DNA of 13,007 nucleotides from a virus. The position numbers and the translations under genes are program-made. The stretch lies in UHGV virus genome UHGV-0203085. One strand, given 5' to 3'. The notes under the pieces are model-generated. The model was not told the origin of the DNA, did no database searches, and saw nothing but the letters and a program-made list of their open reading frames with translations. Position 1 is the first letter of the stretch. Each line of letters begins with the position of its first letter. Of the stretch, positions 1,493 to 4,836 are shown piece by piece.

Positions 1493-1689
1493 CACTTCGC
1501 CCCTTTGAATTTAAAATTGTTGCCGATGAGTTCTAAATATTCTGCGCTTACAGTTGCATGTCCACCAGTAAATACATTGCGAAGTTTACAAATAGAGGAA
1601 CTGCCTCTGTTGTTGGTGGAAAATACGGAGTACAAACATCCCGACTTTTTACTACGGACCAACTGACCCTTCTTAAACATAACCTTCAT
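1492..1689 (-). CDS. hypothetical small protein, 65 aa
   Basis: ATG 1687-1689 (minus), second in-frame ATG 9 nt downstream; first gene after promoter-like element D; N-terminal FKKGQLVRSKKSG resembles small KOW/DUF2158-like phage proteins (weak, from memory). Confidence 0.5.
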   Translation of the reverse strand: MKVMFKKGQLVRSKKSGCLYSVFSTNNRGSSSICKLRNVFTGGHATVSAEYLELIGNNFKFKGAK

Positions 1690-1707
1690 TCCTATGTCAC
1701 GTTTCGA

Positions 1708-1744
1708 TAAGTGAATAGTAACCTATTATGTTGGGGGCGTGCAA
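1708..1744 (-). promoter_or_regulatory. promoter-like element D (minus orientation): TTGCAC, 18 nt, TACTAT, then conserved TTCACTTA
   Basis: Minus-strand reading cTTGCACgcccccaacataataggtTACTATtcactta. It has 3 mismatches to the 28-bp core shared by elements A and B, and its downstream 21 bp (cgtttcgataagtgaatagta, plus 1700-1720) matches the window-end copy C with one mismatch. It lies about 20-50 nt upstream of the ATG at 1689. Confidence 0.4.
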
Positions 1745-2039
1745 GAGAATAGTTACGATGCCGTTGTGATTCTTTCGTTTAATGGGGTAGCGAGCGAAAC
1801 GAAACGAACGTGGTGCCGAAGGCACCAAGAGTGAGTGAGTGAGCTTGCGGTTCTAACCTGCGGCAAATCAGTAACTTAGATATTTTGGCGGGAATTACAA
1901 TAGACTTTGGGCCTCCCAAACGCGCCAGCGAGCCTCACTCCACACGCTACACGTGCTCGTTTCGCCTGCCGCGCGCCGCGGTCGCTTGTTCATACTTCAC
2001 AAGCTCAGGTGGAGCTTAGCATATTTTTAGTGAAAAGTC

Positions 2040-2055
2040 AACTATTCGAATAGTT
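2040..2055. promoter_or_regulatory. perfect 16-bp palindrome AACTATTCGAATAGTT (putative operator)
   Basis: Exact inverted repeat in the divergent region between elements D and A. Its half-site ACTATTC is the same heptamer found at the -10 region of elements A, B, C and D, and GAATAGTT recurs at 1747-1754. Confidence 0.4.
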
Positions 2056-2107
2056 TATTCCAACATTTACAATTGAGCGGAATAACTGGAATACGTAAAC
2101 AAATAGT

Positions 2108-2143
2108 TTGCACACCCCAATATAATAGGGTACTATTCAGTTA
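2108..2143 (+). promoter_or_regulatory. promoter-like element A: TTGCAC, 17 nt, TACTAT, then conserved TCAGTTA
   Basis: The 28-bp core ccaatataatagggtactattcagttaa is identical to element B. -35-like TTGCAC at 2108-2113, -10-like TACTAT at 2131-2136; an embedded TATAAT lies in the spacer. It is followed by AGGAGG and the ATG at 2162. Confidence 0.45.
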
Positions 2144-2161
2144 ACTTAAACAGGAGGGTGT

Positions 2162-2407
2162 ATGCAGGAGTTACCTAGTTTCGAACGTGAGTTCATTAGC
2201 GGTTTCATACCGGTTACTAATTTCAGTATACAGGATTTATTTGACTTAAGAGAAAACGGCAGACTTTGGGTGTGCAATGCCAAGGATGTTTCAAACGCTA
2301 GAGTATGGAACTTTAGTTTAATGCGCCGCCCGAACAAATCTGGTGAAGGTGCTGTTGGCATGGATTTGTTGCGGCGCAAAGGTAAGCTATTCATGAGAGT
2401 GCAGTAA
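2162..2407 (+). CDS. hypothetical protein, 81 aa (moron-like cassette A)
   Basis: ATG 2162 with AGGAGG 6 nt upstream; own promoter-like element upstream and an intrinsic terminator immediately downstream; opposite in orientation to the flanking minus-strand genes. Confidence 0.6.
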   Translation: MQELPSFEREFISGFIPVTNFSIQDLFDLRENGRLWVCNAKDVSNARVWNFSLMRRPNKSGEGAVGMDLLRRKGKLFMRVQ

Positions 2408-2411
2408 AACT

Positions 2412-2434
2412 AAGGCCCCGTTATGGGGCCTTTT
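2412..2434. terminator. bidirectional intrinsic terminator (stem AAGGCCCC / GGGGCCTT, loop GTTAT)
   Basis: 8-bp GC-rich stem at 2412-2419 and 2425-2432, followed by TTTT on the plus strand and by AGTTTTA on the minus strand. It sits between the stop of the + ORF (2407) and the stop of the minus ORF (2436). Confidence 0.6.
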
Positions 2435-2435
2435 A

Positions 2436-2897
2436 TCATTCTGGCTTCGTAACCTTCGCCGCTCTACTTACCACCTCTACACCATCGGCATCAGTAACTT
2501 TAACGAAGTATTCACCGACAGCATTAACCGTCAGAGAAAGAGTCTCTTCCGGGGCATTTACTACTTCCTTTCCGTCCTTGTACCAGGTCAGCACATACGG
2601 TGCTTTGCCTGCCTTAGCCTCGACAGTGATGATTGCGCTGCCGTCTGCCAGTTCCGTGTCTTTCGGTTGCACGGAGAAATACACGTCGCCCGCGTCCGCC
2701 AGATACGGAATTTCATAAAGCATACCCGCCGCCGGTAGTGCAATACCAGTTTTATCCGCAAACGGCATATCGTCTACTGGTGTACCGAGTACACTTTCAT
2801 CTTCAATAAATACCACATTCTCGCCGGAGCCAGACACGCGGGCGTACTGGACTACGCGACGCGACGGCACATCAGTTACTTTGAAAAATCCCATCAT
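2436..2897 (-). CDS. Ig-like (BIG-type) domain protein, 153 aa, probable virion-associated or decoration protein
   Basis: ATG 2895-2897 overlaps the TAA of the upstream head morphogenesis gene (TAATG coupling). C-terminal YVLTWYKDGKEVVNA...TLSLTVNAVGEYFVKVTDADG has the alternating pattern of an Ig-like beta sandwich. Confidence 0.6.
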   Translation of the reverse strand: MMGFFKVTDVPSRRVVQYARVSGSGENVVFIEDESVLGTPVDDMPFADKTGIALPAAGMLYEIPYLADAGDVYFSVQPKDTELADGSAIITVEAKAGKAPYVLTWYKDGKEVVNAPEETLSLTVNAVGEYFVKVTDADGVEVVSRAAKVTKPE

Positions 2898-4756
2898 TAT
2901 TCCCCTTTCAGATAATCAGCAACACGTTTATCGAGTTCCGCCATCTGCTTAAGTGTCAGCGGATTCCCGAAACCATCTACAGATATTACGCGAAACTCTT
3001 CCGGCGATATACCGCTGTTACGGAAAATCTTACCTCGCACCGGGCCGAGTGCTTCATCCACGAACCATGCCGGTTGTTGTTCAAGGAACTCGTAGTAAGT
3101 GGTGTCCGCGCTTACCTGAGTACCGCCGTCCGCACCCTTAGCTGCGCGTTTCGCTCCTTTATCGAGGAAGTCGAACTCTGAACTGATCACAGGCGCGGTT
3201 GTTGAGCGGCAGTTATGTGCTATAATTCCATTAGCAAGATACCAGTTCTGTTCATTTTCGAGGTTATAAACATGCCCGCAAAAATCAGCTTCACTAAAGA
3301 CCAAATCGACAACATCATCAAGCTCTACACCGACGGCATCGGACCAGTTGAAATCGGAAAGATTATCGGCGTTTCGTGTAGTCCAGTCATACGCGTTCTC
3401 AGAGAGAACGGCGTTACCATTCGCGGAGGCAGCGACGCTATGTTCATCCGAATGGCTAAAGCTACTCCCGAGGAGCGCCTCGCTCTCTCCGCCGCGGCGC
3501 ATGAAGCTGTCCGAGGGAGAAAGGCCGACCATGCTGAACTGCTTCGCAGAGCCAAAGCCAGGGAGGGAGTCATCAACGCCGGCAGTCACTGGGAGTTCCT
3601 TGTCAATGATTTGCTTATTCAGTCCGGACTTGACTTTATCCCAGGAAAGGCGGTCGACAAGTACAATCTCGACTTCGCCGTCGGTACCGTCGCCGTGGAA
3701 GTCTTCGGGGGAGGTTGGGCTTGTACTGACCGCCGCCGGATTGACCGTTACATTAGCCGCACTAAACAAATCGGAGAACTTGGCTACAACGTTGTGTTCC
3801 TTATGCTTGAGAGAGAGCGCAGAGTCCTTAGCGCACACGAGCTTGTCACCTACATTGAGAAGGCCGGAAGCAACCCAACCACTGGCGGTCAATACCTGGT
3901 GGTTTGGGGTGATAGACAAGGTGCGACCGGACTTTGTAGAGACATAGACTATAGTGCCTTTGTACGCCCGTTTAAAAATGTTAGAAACAGGGCTACCGGT
4001 AGATACTACAGTGTCCCCAAGTAAACAATTAGGGTGGGCCGGAGGCATCGGCCCTTTACCAATTTCCCACGTCATCCCGTCCCTGGCTCTGCAAATCGTA
4101 CTGGTACGACTATCAAGCGTTGACACCCACTCGTATTTCTCGATGATGTCGTCGTTCTGGCGGTACGTCTCGTTGCGGGCCTCGTTGGATACGTGAGCCA
4201 GCGCGGTGCGGATTACGGTAGCTGCATTACGTTCAGAGATGTCCGCCAGTCCACCAGCGCCTACGACATTCTTAACAATCTGCCGTGTCGTCTGGCCTTG
4301 GACAAAGCCCATCTTAACGCCGGTTACCAGGCGCGATACTTCTGTTTCACCCCAGCCCGACATCAGCTTAGTGAAGTCAACCGGCTTGTCGCTTAATGAT
4401 AAGGGTTGAAACTCGGCAGCGGCCCATACCTGTTCCGCGGTAGGCGTAATAAACTCGGCGTTAACGTTGGTGGCCAGCGTTTTTACGTTCCACTCTGCCT
4501 CATAAGCCGCCAGTTCTTTAAGGTCTTCTGTCAGTTTTGTTTGCCAGTCACCCGTAAGTCCCGCCAGTGCTTCTTCGAGGTCGCGTAACAGCTTATTTAG
4601 CCGCGCGGTACTACGACCGTCGTCGCCGAATAACAGCACCTGCCGTTTGATTTCGTCCCGCATCTCCTTAAGGAACGGCGCGAGGTCTTTCACTTCACCG
4701 GATGCGGTGCGTTGCAGCCATATCTGGTGGCTGATTAGAGATGTAAGTAAGCTCAT
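2897..4756 (-). CDS. head morphogenesis protein (Phage Mu F / SPP1 gp7-like) interrupted by an intein
   Basis: Long minus ORF; best start is ATG 4754-4756 with AGGAGGG 3-4 nt upstream (track ORF begins at TTG 4813 with no RBS). The N-extein ends ...WVSTLDSRTSTICRARDGMTWEIGKGPMPPAHPN, which I recall as the Mu F signature preceding HPNCRC. The gene lies directly downstream of the portal gene, as expected by synteny. Confidence 0.8.
   Translation of the reverse strand: MSLLTSLISHQIWLQRTASGEVKDLAPFLKEMRDEIKRQVLLFGDDGRSTARLNKLLRDLEEALAGLTGDWQTKLTEDLKELAAYEAEWNVKTLATNVNAEFITPTAEQVWAAAEFQPLSLSDKPVDFTKLMSGWGETEVSRLVTGVKMGFVQGQTTRQIVKNVVGAGGLADISERNAATVIRTALAHVSNEARNETYRQNDDIIEKYEWVSTLDSRTSTICRARDGMTWEIGKGPMPPAHPNCLLGDTVVSTGSPVSNIFKRAYKGTIVYVSTKSGRTLSITPNHQVLTASGWVASGLLNVGDKLVCAKDSALSLKHKEHNVVAKFSDLFSAANVTVNPAAVSTSPTSPEDFHGDGTDGEVEIVLVDRLSWDKVKSGLNKQIIDKELPVTAGVDDSLPGFGSAKQFSMVGLSPSDSFMRRGGESEALLGSSFSHSDEHSVAASANGNAVLSENAYDWTTRNADNLSDFNWSDAVGVELDDVVDLVFSEADFCGHVYNLENEQNWYLANGIIAHNCRSTTAPVISSEFDFLDKGAKRAAKGADGGTQVSADTTYYEFLEQQPAWFVDEALGPVRGKIFRNSGISPEEFRVISVDGFGNPLTLKQMAELDKRVADYLKGE
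3212..4027 (-). mobile_element. intein, 272 codons (Cys1 ... His-Asn, +1 Cys)
   Basis: In-frame insertion beginning CLLGDTVVS (block A; Cys codon = plus 4025-4027), with TLSITPNHQVLT (block B, T-x-x-H) and GWVASGLLNVGDKLV in the N-terminal Hint part. The C-terminal Hint part is ADFCGHVYNLENEQNWYLANGIIAHN, followed by +1 Cys (plus 3209-3211). The central region is S/A/D/G-rich with no LAGLIDADG, HNH or GIY-YIG motifs. Confidence 0.75.
3272..4024 (+). CDS. antisense-nested ORF, 250 aa: HTH plus DUF559/Vsr-like (PD-(D/E)xK-type) putative homing endonuclease
   Basis: ATG 3272 with GAGG about 8 nt upstream (an in-frame ATG at 3215 gives the 269-aa track ORF). N-terminal HTH-like IGPVEIGKIIGVSCSPVIRVLRENGV. 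Central block WEFLVNDLLIQSGLDF...YNLDFAVGTVAVEVFGGGW...RRRIDRYISRTKQIGELGYNVVFL matches the DUF559/Vsr pattern (D-F ... hEhDG.W ... R ... GY.V) as I remember it. The ORF is bounded by antisense stops at 3203-3205 and 4022-4024, so it spans the intein to within 2 codons. Confidence 0.55.
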   Translation: MPAKISFTKDQIDNIIKLYTDGIGPVEIGKIIGVSCSPVIRVLRENGVTIRGGSDAMFIRMAKATPEERLALSAAAHEAVRGRKADHAELLRRAKAREGVINAGSHWEFLVNDLLIQSGLDFIPGKAVDKYNLDFAVGTVAVEVFGGGWACTDRRRIDRYISRTKQIGELGYNVVFLMLERERRVLSAHELVTYIEKAGSNPTTGGQYLVVWGDRQGATGLCRDIDYSAFVRPFKNVRNRATGRYYSVPK

Positions 4757-4800
4757 AAGCCCTCCTGTAGTATCGCCAGTGTAACGCATAAAAATAATAT

Positions 4801-4836
4801 TTGCAGACACCAATATAATAGGGTACTATTCAGTTA
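4801..4836 (+). promoter_or_regulatory. promoter-like element B: TTGCAG, 17 nt, TACTAT, then conserved TCAGTTA
   Basis: The 28-bp core (4809-4836) is identical to element A. It lies in the divergent intergenic region between the head morphogenesis start (4756, minus) and the + ORF at 4861. Confidence 0.45.

Follow-up and report, generated by a model that had tools for sequence, protein, structure and literature searches.

A MuF-site intein of a Guernseyvirinae phage with a Vsr-like endonuclease gene on its opposite strand

The window analysed here, a stretch of 13,007 nucleotides of the virus genome UHGV-0203085, contains on its minus strand a MuF-like head morphogenesis gene that is interrupted by 272 additional codons. 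A previous model-made interpretation of the letters alone (the sequence-only reading) had taken these codons for an intein and had called their interior unusual. This raises the question of what the interior encodes, and on which strand. In our analysis the functional coding of the interior sits on the plus strand and not in the intein frame. We consider it very probable that the element is a mobile intein made of two genes that share one stretch of 816 bp, each on its own strand, and of which the plus-strand one, an endonuclease gene, drives homing. The coordinates of all features are given in Table 1.

The minus-strand reading across the insert, whose borders are marked here by slashes, is ...PMPPAHPN / CLLGDTVVSTGSPV ... 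TLSITPNHQVLTASGWVASGLLNVGDKLV ... ADFCGHVYNLENEQNWYLANGIIAHN / CRSTTAPV.... Translation of the window thus gives exactly the residues quoted in the sequence-only reading for positions 3212-4027, from Cys1 to a terminal His-Asn pair followed by Cys. The class 1 signature that it had described (block A, T-x-x-H, His-Asn, +1 Cys) is likewise found in the translation, with Cys1, Thr40/His43, His271-Asn272 and the +1 Cys all present. A profile search of the 272-residue segment, which had been proposed as a check, matched Intein_splicing (PF14890) with 41.2 bits (E=1.9e-10; curated cut-off 35.8 bits) on the insert alone. In an alignment of homologues, TPNHP of block B is conserved, whereas G251, H252, V253, Y254 and N255 of block F as well as H271 and N272 are invariant. 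The block A motif C[LFV]xGDT was found on the N-side of the 80 viral loci described below. AlphaFold2 (AF2) predicts beta strands at residues 8-66 and 234-271, with pLDDT scores (predicted local distance difference test) of 60-76 at residues 21-68 and 224-249 and of 61-76 in the strands at block B; the intein model as a whole is weak.

The insert sits in a Mu F-like head gene, as had been claimed. Phage_Mu_F (Pfam PF04233; cut-off 29.6 bits) matches residues 167-263 of the precursor, ending where the insert begins, and its score rises from 45.2 bits for the unspliced protein (profile positions 8-107) to 51.5 bits for the spliced one (8-111/112). The PHROGs match is phrog_241, head morphogenesis (E=1.6e-147). 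The comparison of the predicted 347-residue extein with intein-free homologues, also suggested beforehand, showed that the segment is absent from the allele of Escherichia phage vB_EcoS_fFiEco03: the 148-residue conceptual splice junction is colinear with it in one piece at 98% identity, and its head gene has exactly 1044 nt or 347 codons' worth of protein (347 aa), which is the window gene minus 272 codons. In the same junction search, 1127 phage records aligned at a single place with 80% or more of the junction. Removal of the insert restores PPAHPN-CRS, which the sequence-only reading had called close to the HPNCRC motif of Phage Mu F / SPP1 gp7 minor head proteins; the insertion-site motif is HPN/CRS in the window phage and xxN/CRC in other hosts. 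All features looked for at the level of sequence are therefore present and confirm the insert as a class 1 intein at the MuF site, and none of the refuting observations named beforehand applies, given the Hint-family match and the intein-free homologues without the segment.

To locate the coding function of the interior, codon positions and divergence were compared in an ungapped 1860-nt alignment of eight phages, with the ratio of nonsynonymous to synonymous substitution rates (dN/dS) calculated by the method of Nei and Gojobori. In the exteins, the variable sites at sense codon positions 1/2/3 numbered 97/63/214 (N-extein) and 24/15/90 (C-extein). In the intein interior, three bins of 30 codons had 25, 14 and 24 variable sites at position 1, 2, 2 and 8 at position 2, and 6, 5 and 14 at position 3. 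Variable sites of the interior are thus concentrated at sense position 1, meaning that the changes gather at the wobble position of the antisense frame. The dN/dS values point in the same direction. For intein codons 76-232 dN/dS came to 1.11 when read in sense and to 0.13 in the antisense frame (ratio of the proportions of nonsynonymous and synonymous differences, pN/pS, 0.20); the exteins gave 0.09-0.12 and 1.26-1.99, respectively. Opposite intein codons 233-252 the antisense frame gave 0.24-0.31. Since the splicing blocks are constrained in the sense frame (dN/dS 0.02-0.36) and the head gene is assumed to be important, we infer that the precursor splices autocatalytically.

Pfam and PHROGs scans gave no family match for the interior when read in the intein frame. 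An in-frame domain of the LAGLIDADG, HNH or any other kind was rejected on the basis of these empty scans and of the disorder predicted by AF2. In the intein frame the interior is neutral and predicted to be disordered, yet it is free of stops. What the sequence-only reading called an unusual interior has no functional role in the intein protein; it corresponds to a plus-strand homing endonuclease gene in reverse complement.

This gene lies in a plus-strand open reading frame (ORF) from 3215 to 4024 that is codon-aligned with the intein, so that both strands are open across 3215-4024. Its TAA stop codon, at 4022-4024, pairs with intein codon 2 (TTA, Leu). The best solved relative of the family profile is I-Bth0305I (PDB 3R3P, E=6.7e-6), and Pfam detects REase_MTES_1575 in 8 of the 18 family members and HTH_7 or HTH_23 in 6 of them. 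Because of these matches the protein is assigned as an N-terminal helix-turn-helix (HTH) region followed by a Vsr-fold nuclease related to I-Bth0305I; both the Vsr-like fold and the N-terminal DNA-binding region are found. Conserved residues of the nuclease core are E108, Y131-N132-x-D134 and E143-V-F-G-G-G-W149. With AF2 alignments of similar depth, the mean pLDDT was 85.5 for the plus-strand protein and 42 for the intein, in which residues 69-223 scored 25-36.

Homologues of the endonuclease share 24-98% identity. Of the 11 distant loci that were examined, 10 have the homologue on the strand opposite a MuF/minor-head-like gene. Antisense homologues in MuF inteins occur in phages of Vibrio, Gordonia, Mycobacterium, Klebsiella, Aggregatibacter, Idiomarina and Edwardsiella. 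A motif conserved in the intein frame, FHGDG.D.EV.IV, mirrors the active-site motif of the nuclease, YN.DF....VAVEVFGGGW. A chance antisense ORF was ruled out by the codon-position and dN/dS tests, by the profile and fold matches and by the survey of 80 loci (79 open on both strands). At 3716-3721 of the plus strand (W149-A150), Ala replaces the His of Vsr (H69) and of I-Bth0305I (H213) despite strong purifying selection. This catalytic-His position is Ala or Ser in the closest relatives and His in the distant members P0013-P0017; some relatives have GGHW, with the His two positions earlier.

The C-terminal tail of the endonuclease, which lies opposite the N-terminal splicing domain, is a different case. 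Opposite intein residues 42-75 its own frame has a pN/pS of 1.08, compared with 0.48 in the sense frame, and a free-standing homologue aligns only up to position 261 of the 300 positions of the profile. For these two reasons we take the tail to be a probable passenger of the sequence that encodes the Hint domain, and a true dual-coding domain was rejected as improbable on the same grounds. The AF2 confidence on the tail is moderate. Opposite intein residues 1-41 pN/pS is about 0.3 in both frames (0.32 versus 0.35), and for this part of the tail the choice between passenger and dual-coding status is ambiguous.

If the interior has no function in the intein frame, the frame would still have to remain open for the head protein to be made. 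None of the codons TTA, CTA and TCA occurs among the 18 Leu and 12 Ser codons of the endonuclease gene (P=4.6e-3 under the codon usage of the phage), whereas the equivalent opposite frame of every other gene in the window contains 1-11 stops. Both strands are also open in ten divergent GenBank phages with a related element, namely phages of Vibrio, Gordonia (three), Mycobacterium, Klebsiella, Aggregatibacter, Idiomarina, Edwardsiella and E. coli (fEg-Eco06). A survey of IMG/VR with one peptide pattern returned 537 viral contigs encoding endonuclease relatives, of which the best 80 loci were analysed. In 79 of these best 80 the codon-aligned opposite frame had zero stops over 205-257 codons, a figure that is biased towards embedded copies because the 80 loci are those closest to the query. 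The other two opposite frames contained about 12 stops each on average at these loci, at GC contents of 41-70%. On the simplest reading of these sequences, selection holds the sense frame open, and the precursor has to be read across the insert and then undergo cis-splicing.

Among the 80 loci, L031 (1168-1860) alone has stops, three in number, where the intein frame runs across the endonuclease gene; a copy that is decaying or split might account for them, as might an error of sequencing. The Acinetobacter phages BUCT629 and IME285 provide a natural control: their homologue is free-standing beside a MuF gene that lacks an intein, and the strand opposite the homologue is rich in stops. In BUCT629 (locus L020; also L007) the homologue of 297 aa (2306-3199, plus strand) is convergent with MuF (3193-3969, minus strand; ...PM-CKCRAK...), with an overlap of 7 nt. 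This arrangement could be ancestor-like or derived relative to the embedded state. As a link to split inteins the Acinetobacter phages were rejected, since MuF is complete and intein-less and the endonuclease gene free-standing and convergent.

The putative expression signals of the endonuclease gene lie opposite the C-terminal splicing blocks. Its ATG, at 3272, where the conserved N-terminus of the family (MPAK...) begins, is the reverse complement of the His252 codon of block F. Among 58 distinct family members this His is encoded 54 times by CAT and 4 times by CAC (binomial p=3e-12 versus equal use), whereas the other genes of the window use CAT 13 and CAC 17 times. All 58 members therefore have an ATG or GTG start on the opposite strand. 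In the window a Shine-Dalgarno-like GAGG precedes the ATG by 8 nt, and a strong Shine-Dalgarno core (GGAG, GAGG or AGGA) stands at the corresponding position in 32 of the 58. Further upstream, an extended -10 box, TGcTATAAT, was located by eye and then by pattern search; TGNTATAAT is unique in the 13-kb window on both strands (3218-3226), and the box is conserved in Jersey-like and Vibrio homologues. It is a candidate for the promoter of the endonuclease gene.

Sequence comparison among phages shows recent horizontal spread of the element. In bins of 60 nt, the N-extein of the window is 48-78% identical to that of Jerseyvirus jersey and the C-extein 75-92%, whereas the intein reaches 88-99%; where the intein begins on the N-terminal side, the identity jumps from 70% to 98%. 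The whole head gene is covered by no more than 58 of 196 closely related records, and intein-less alleles with 98% identical exteins exist. The steps at the borders together with this sporadic distribution fit active homing.

Related two-strand units are also found at other sites. In Escherichia phage fEg-Eco06 (L008, 865-2856, minus strand), which has the same Kagunavirus head gene, the HPN/CRS site is empty and a different intein is inserted 20 codons upstream (STT/C...VKN/CRARDG); its antisense ORF shares only 24% identity with the endonuclease of the window. Mycobacterium phage Sejanus (L004) carries the element at a third site (VWV/C...VHN/CTIDGKTRPSH) in a large MuF-protease fusion, and Gordonia phages (L003/L012) have an intein at the xxN/CRC site. 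In both Sejanus and the Gordonia phages the antisense ORFs are open and start at the block F His codon. A related intein with 32% identity lies in an RtcB RNA ligase gene on the metagenomic contig L022 (1501-2790, plus strand; ...EAIN/CFPGDT...IIAHN/CHHNY), and there too the antisense ORF, which is HTH and Vsr-like (1672-2346, minus strand), begins at the block F His codon. At this locus, then, the two-strand unit has changed its host gene.

On one possible interpretation of the signals opposite blocks F and G, selection acts on these blocks in two ways at once, for the protein motifs that they encode and for the start codon, ribosome-binding site and promoter that they provide to the antisense gene. 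The block F His codon would then be fixed as CAT because it forms the ATG, and this obligate two-strand unit would have been kept from actinophages to enterobacterial phages while moving as one among at least three MuF sites and RtcB. We consider the case for and against this interpretation to be evenly balanced.

Taken together, the element would work as follows. The head precursor would be read straight through the insert on the minus strand. Residues 1-75 or so, with blocks A and B, and about 233-272, with blocks F and G, would form a class 1 Hint splicing domain, whose halves would be joined by a linker of about 157 residues that has no function at the protein level and has to satisfy the sole demand of being stop-free. 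Excision of the intein would join ...PPAHPN to CRSTT... and yield the head protein of 347 aa. The plus strand would give rise to the 250-aa HTH and Vsr-fold nuclease, with start, ribosome-binding site and probable promoter inside the reverse complement of blocks F and G. This nuclease would most likely cut intein-less MuF alleles of co-infecting phages near HPN/CRS, and repair from an intein-bearing genome would copy the whole two-strand unit.

Several points weigh against this account. The composite EDxHD motif is incomplete in the plus-strand protein: conservation extends to E108, D134 and an additional acidic residue, E143, but Ala150 stands where the His would be, and in the plus-strand family no conserved Asp aligns with D222 of I-Bth0305I. 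The protein is therefore a Vsr-fold/MTES_1575/DUF559-like relative and not a strict EDxHD member, and given this partial motif the chemistry of the endonuclease may be different or its activity reduced. Both AF2 alignments were shallow (14-18 sequences), and the bias of the 80 loci has been mentioned. A generic sigma-70 scan gave no plus-strand promoter ahead of the endonuclease gene, the -10 box being missed because it is without a -35 element. High identity of the intein between phages could also result from ordinary recombination. Finally, splicing, expression of the plus strand, the DNA target and cleavage activity are all four matters that we infer.

These points have to be set against what other explanations would demand. 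That the insert is a canonical one-strand intein, with a novel endonuclease or other domain encoded in the intein frame and the plus-strand ORF as an accidental by-product of codon usage, is scarcely credible. An antisense frame stays open most easily when it is codon-aligned, another gene of the window has an open run of 193 codons, and FHGDG.D.EV.IV is conserved in the intein frame; yet this motif is the mirror of the YN.DF...VAVEVFGG motif of the nuclease, the interior is constrained in the antisense and not in the sense frame (dN/dS 0.13 versus 1.11), its sense product has no family match in Pfam or PHROGs and a pLDDT of only 25-36, and the antisense product matches Vsr/I-Bth0305I nucleases by profile, Pfam and fold. 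Improbable, but less so, is a working intein with a relic endonuclease that is unexpressed or inactive, the element being inherited vertically or exchanged by ordinary recombination. The Ala in place of the catalytic His of EDxHD in this clade would agree with a relic, and so would the remark in a 2025 preprint that some VSR-like cases look vertically inherited (bioRxiv 10.1101/2025.01.02.630785). However, purifying selection on the plus-strand frame equals that on the exteins, the start codon is kept in 58 of 58 members, the intein similarity between Kagunavirus and Jerseyvirus is far above that of the exteins and has sharp boundaries, and the distribution among close relatives is sporadic.

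Alternatively, the plus-strand protein could be expressed in another role, as a transcription regulator, as a nuclease for exclusion between phages or as an antisense regulator of head-gene expression. HTH domains dominate its N-terminal half, a free-standing homologue stands beside the intein-less MuF gene in Acinetobacter phages, and nuclease genes of phages reportedly occur at the boundaries of recombination (PMC10055350). Against this speak the strict association with inteins at three MuF sites and in RtcB, the joint movement of endonuclease and intein, and the closest characterised relative, which is a bona fide homing endonuclease; such a role is thus very improbable. A mobile two-strand intein with a homing endonuclease accordingly is the explanation that we retain.

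Table 1. Features of the intein-containing head gene and of the antisense endonuclease gene in the window
Feature	Position	Strand	Description	Basis
MuF-like head morphogenesis gene	2897..4756	-	619-aa precursor including the intein; stop codon 2897-2899	ORF list, Pfam, phrog_241, orthologue annotation
N-extein	4028..4756	-	243 aa, ends ...PPAHPN	sense dN/dS 0.12
C-extein	2900..3211	-	104 aa	sense dN/dS 0.09
+1 Cys	3209..3211	-	first C-extein residue (CRSTTAPV...)	
Class 1 intein	3212..4027	-	272 codons, Cys1 to Asn272	translation, PF14890, absence from fFiEco03 allele
Intein block A	3989..4027	-	CLLGDTVVSTGSP; nucleophile Cys1 at 4025-4027	
Intein block B region	3878..3922	-	TLSITPNHQVLTASG; Thr40, His43 (Thr40-Pro-Asn-His43)	
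Intein interior, residues 76-232	3332..3802	-	stop-free, otherwise unconstrained in the intein frame	sense dN/dS 1.11, AF2
Intein block F	3239..3277	-	GHVYNLENEQNWY; GHVYNL	sense dN/dS 0.02-0.11
Intein block G	3212..3232	-	NGIIAHN; penultimate His, terminal Asn	
Antisense homing endonuclease gene	3272..4024	+	250 aa and stop, codon-aligned with the intein	
Constrained endonuclease part, aa 1-177	3272..3802	+	HTH region and nuclease core	antisense-frame dN/dS
Vsr-fold nuclease core, about aa 104-177	3581..3802	+	E108 3593-3595; D134 3671-3673; E143-V-F-G-G-G-W149 3698-3718	
Endonuclease C-terminal tail, aa 178-250	3803..4021	+	73 codons, opposite the intein N-terminal splicing domain	
Endonuclease ATG start	3272..3274	+	reverse complement of block F His252 codon CAT	
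Shine-Dalgarno-like GAGG	3260..3263	+	8 nt upstream of the ATG; opposite block F Asn-Leu codons	
Candidate extended -10, TGcTATAAT	3218..3226	+	TGCTATAAT; opposite block G Ile-Ile-Ala-His codons	consensus match

The phage of the window, a Salmonella/E. coli phage, belongs to the Guernseyvirinae, in the Kagunavirus/Jerseyvirus group, and the closest match to its head gene at the gene level has 93.3% identity. An open frame of 638 codons on the minus strand (2897..4813) holds the whole head gene together with the insert. The start of the head gene, ATG 4756, was taken from the annotated starts in relatives and gives a precursor of 619 aa and a spliced product of 347 aa; orthologues are annotated with the same start and length. 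In the relatives MZ560703, MT677934, OQ507916 and OL519843 the head gene is labelled 'NAD+--asparagine ADP-ribosyltransferase', a label that was probably propagated from the association of MuF with ADP-ribosyltransferases.

Elsewhere in the window, a GC-rich hairpin with T-runs on both strands (2412-2432) lies between the decoration-protein gene (2436-2897, minus strand) and a plus-strand ORF (2162-2407), and matches the bidirectional terminators that the annotation of phage Snoke shows at this place. About 450 nt at 1690-2145 are without an ORF of at least 60 aa on either strand. Some relatives (SGP009) have a tRNA-Ser annotated between the spanin and decoration-protein genes; ARAGORN found no tRNA anywhere in the window.

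In about 530 bp, then, both strands are read, one in a functional frame and the other in a frame that merely avoids stops. This layout explains why annotation pipelines see inteins that look decaying or linker-rich, and the endonuclease gene is unannotated in most of the records examined. With relatives on 537 viral contigs and both strands open in 79 of the closest 80 loci, the arrangement is common and not rare. The overlap of the initiation signals with blocks F and G offers a testable handle, as mutations that are synonymous in one frame can disable the other. Compact HTH and Vsr-fold nucleases, and inteins that tolerate an unstructured insert of 157 residues, are also of some interest for protein engineering.

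The intein itself is already known from sister phages, in which it is annotated or mentioned. In Escherichia phage Snoke (MK931441, CPT_Snoke_004) the orthologous product is named "intein-containing capsid morphogenesis protein", and the record marks an intein of 273 residues as a mat_peptide (Cys244-Cys516, PF14890), and an intein in the head gene of the Jerseyvirus UPWr_S phages was mentioned in a 2021 paper (PMC8425127). These inteins lie in the same gene and at the same insertion site as that of the window, with 95-97% nucleotide identity. The window comes from a different isolate, and in the Snoke and UPWr_S records only the intein on the head strand is annotated; the antisense endonuclease gene is unannotated in Snoke.

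The endonuclease belongs to a superfamily with two further precedents. I-Bth0305I was characterised by Taylor et al. (2011, PMC3239194), who named the EDxHD family (E170, D196, N208, H213, D222). Its gene lies in a recA group I intron, whereas the endonuclease of the window lies inside an intein, has Ala at the position of His213 and is without an identifiable equivalent of Asp222. In fractured genes (Dassa et al. 2009, PMC2677866), Vsr-like endonuclease genes stand between the halves of split inteins. They resemble the window in that an endonuclease of the same superfamily, with expression signals of its own, is placed at the canonical insertion region, and fractured-gene loci are mainly phage-derived. 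Unlike the window gene, which is one uninterrupted frame of 638 codons, they have host gene and intein broken in two and rely on trans-splicing. As the intein frame is open through the endonuclease gene, one precursor and cis-splicing are expected in the window phage. A fractured gene or split intein was ruled out by this single frame, and 79 of the best 80 related loci are likewise uninterrupted.

Endonucleases on the opposite strand of an intein have precedents as well. Inteins with antisense LAGLIDADG endonucleases, in Synechocystis DnaX and others (Gorbalenya 1998), are cited in the covered parts of the preprint by Gosselin, Arsenault and Gogarten (bioRxiv 10.1101/2025.01.02.630785); they share the opposite-strand position with the window gene and differ in the endonuclease family. 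The preprint itself describes contiguous inteins with antisense VSR-like homing endonucleases (HENs) in actinophage minor capsid and other genes, and gives the same HHpred link to 3R3P. The likeness to the window extends to the contiguous intein, the opposite-strand Vsr-like or EDxHD-like endonuclease and the MuF-like gene; a contiguous intein ORF with a Vsr-like ORF inside it on the opposite strand is exactly what the window contains. In the searched text of the preprint the overlap of initiation signals with blocks F and G appears undiscussed, and the parts covered contain no strand-specific selection test and no IMG/VR survey. In contrast to the actinophage set, the hosts of the window element and its relatives are Guernseyvirinae and other phages of Gammaproteobacteria. 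Since the Gordonia and Mycobacterium homologues found here fall within the set of Gosselin et al., the window element is an antisense-HEN intein of the type already described, here in enterobacterial phages.

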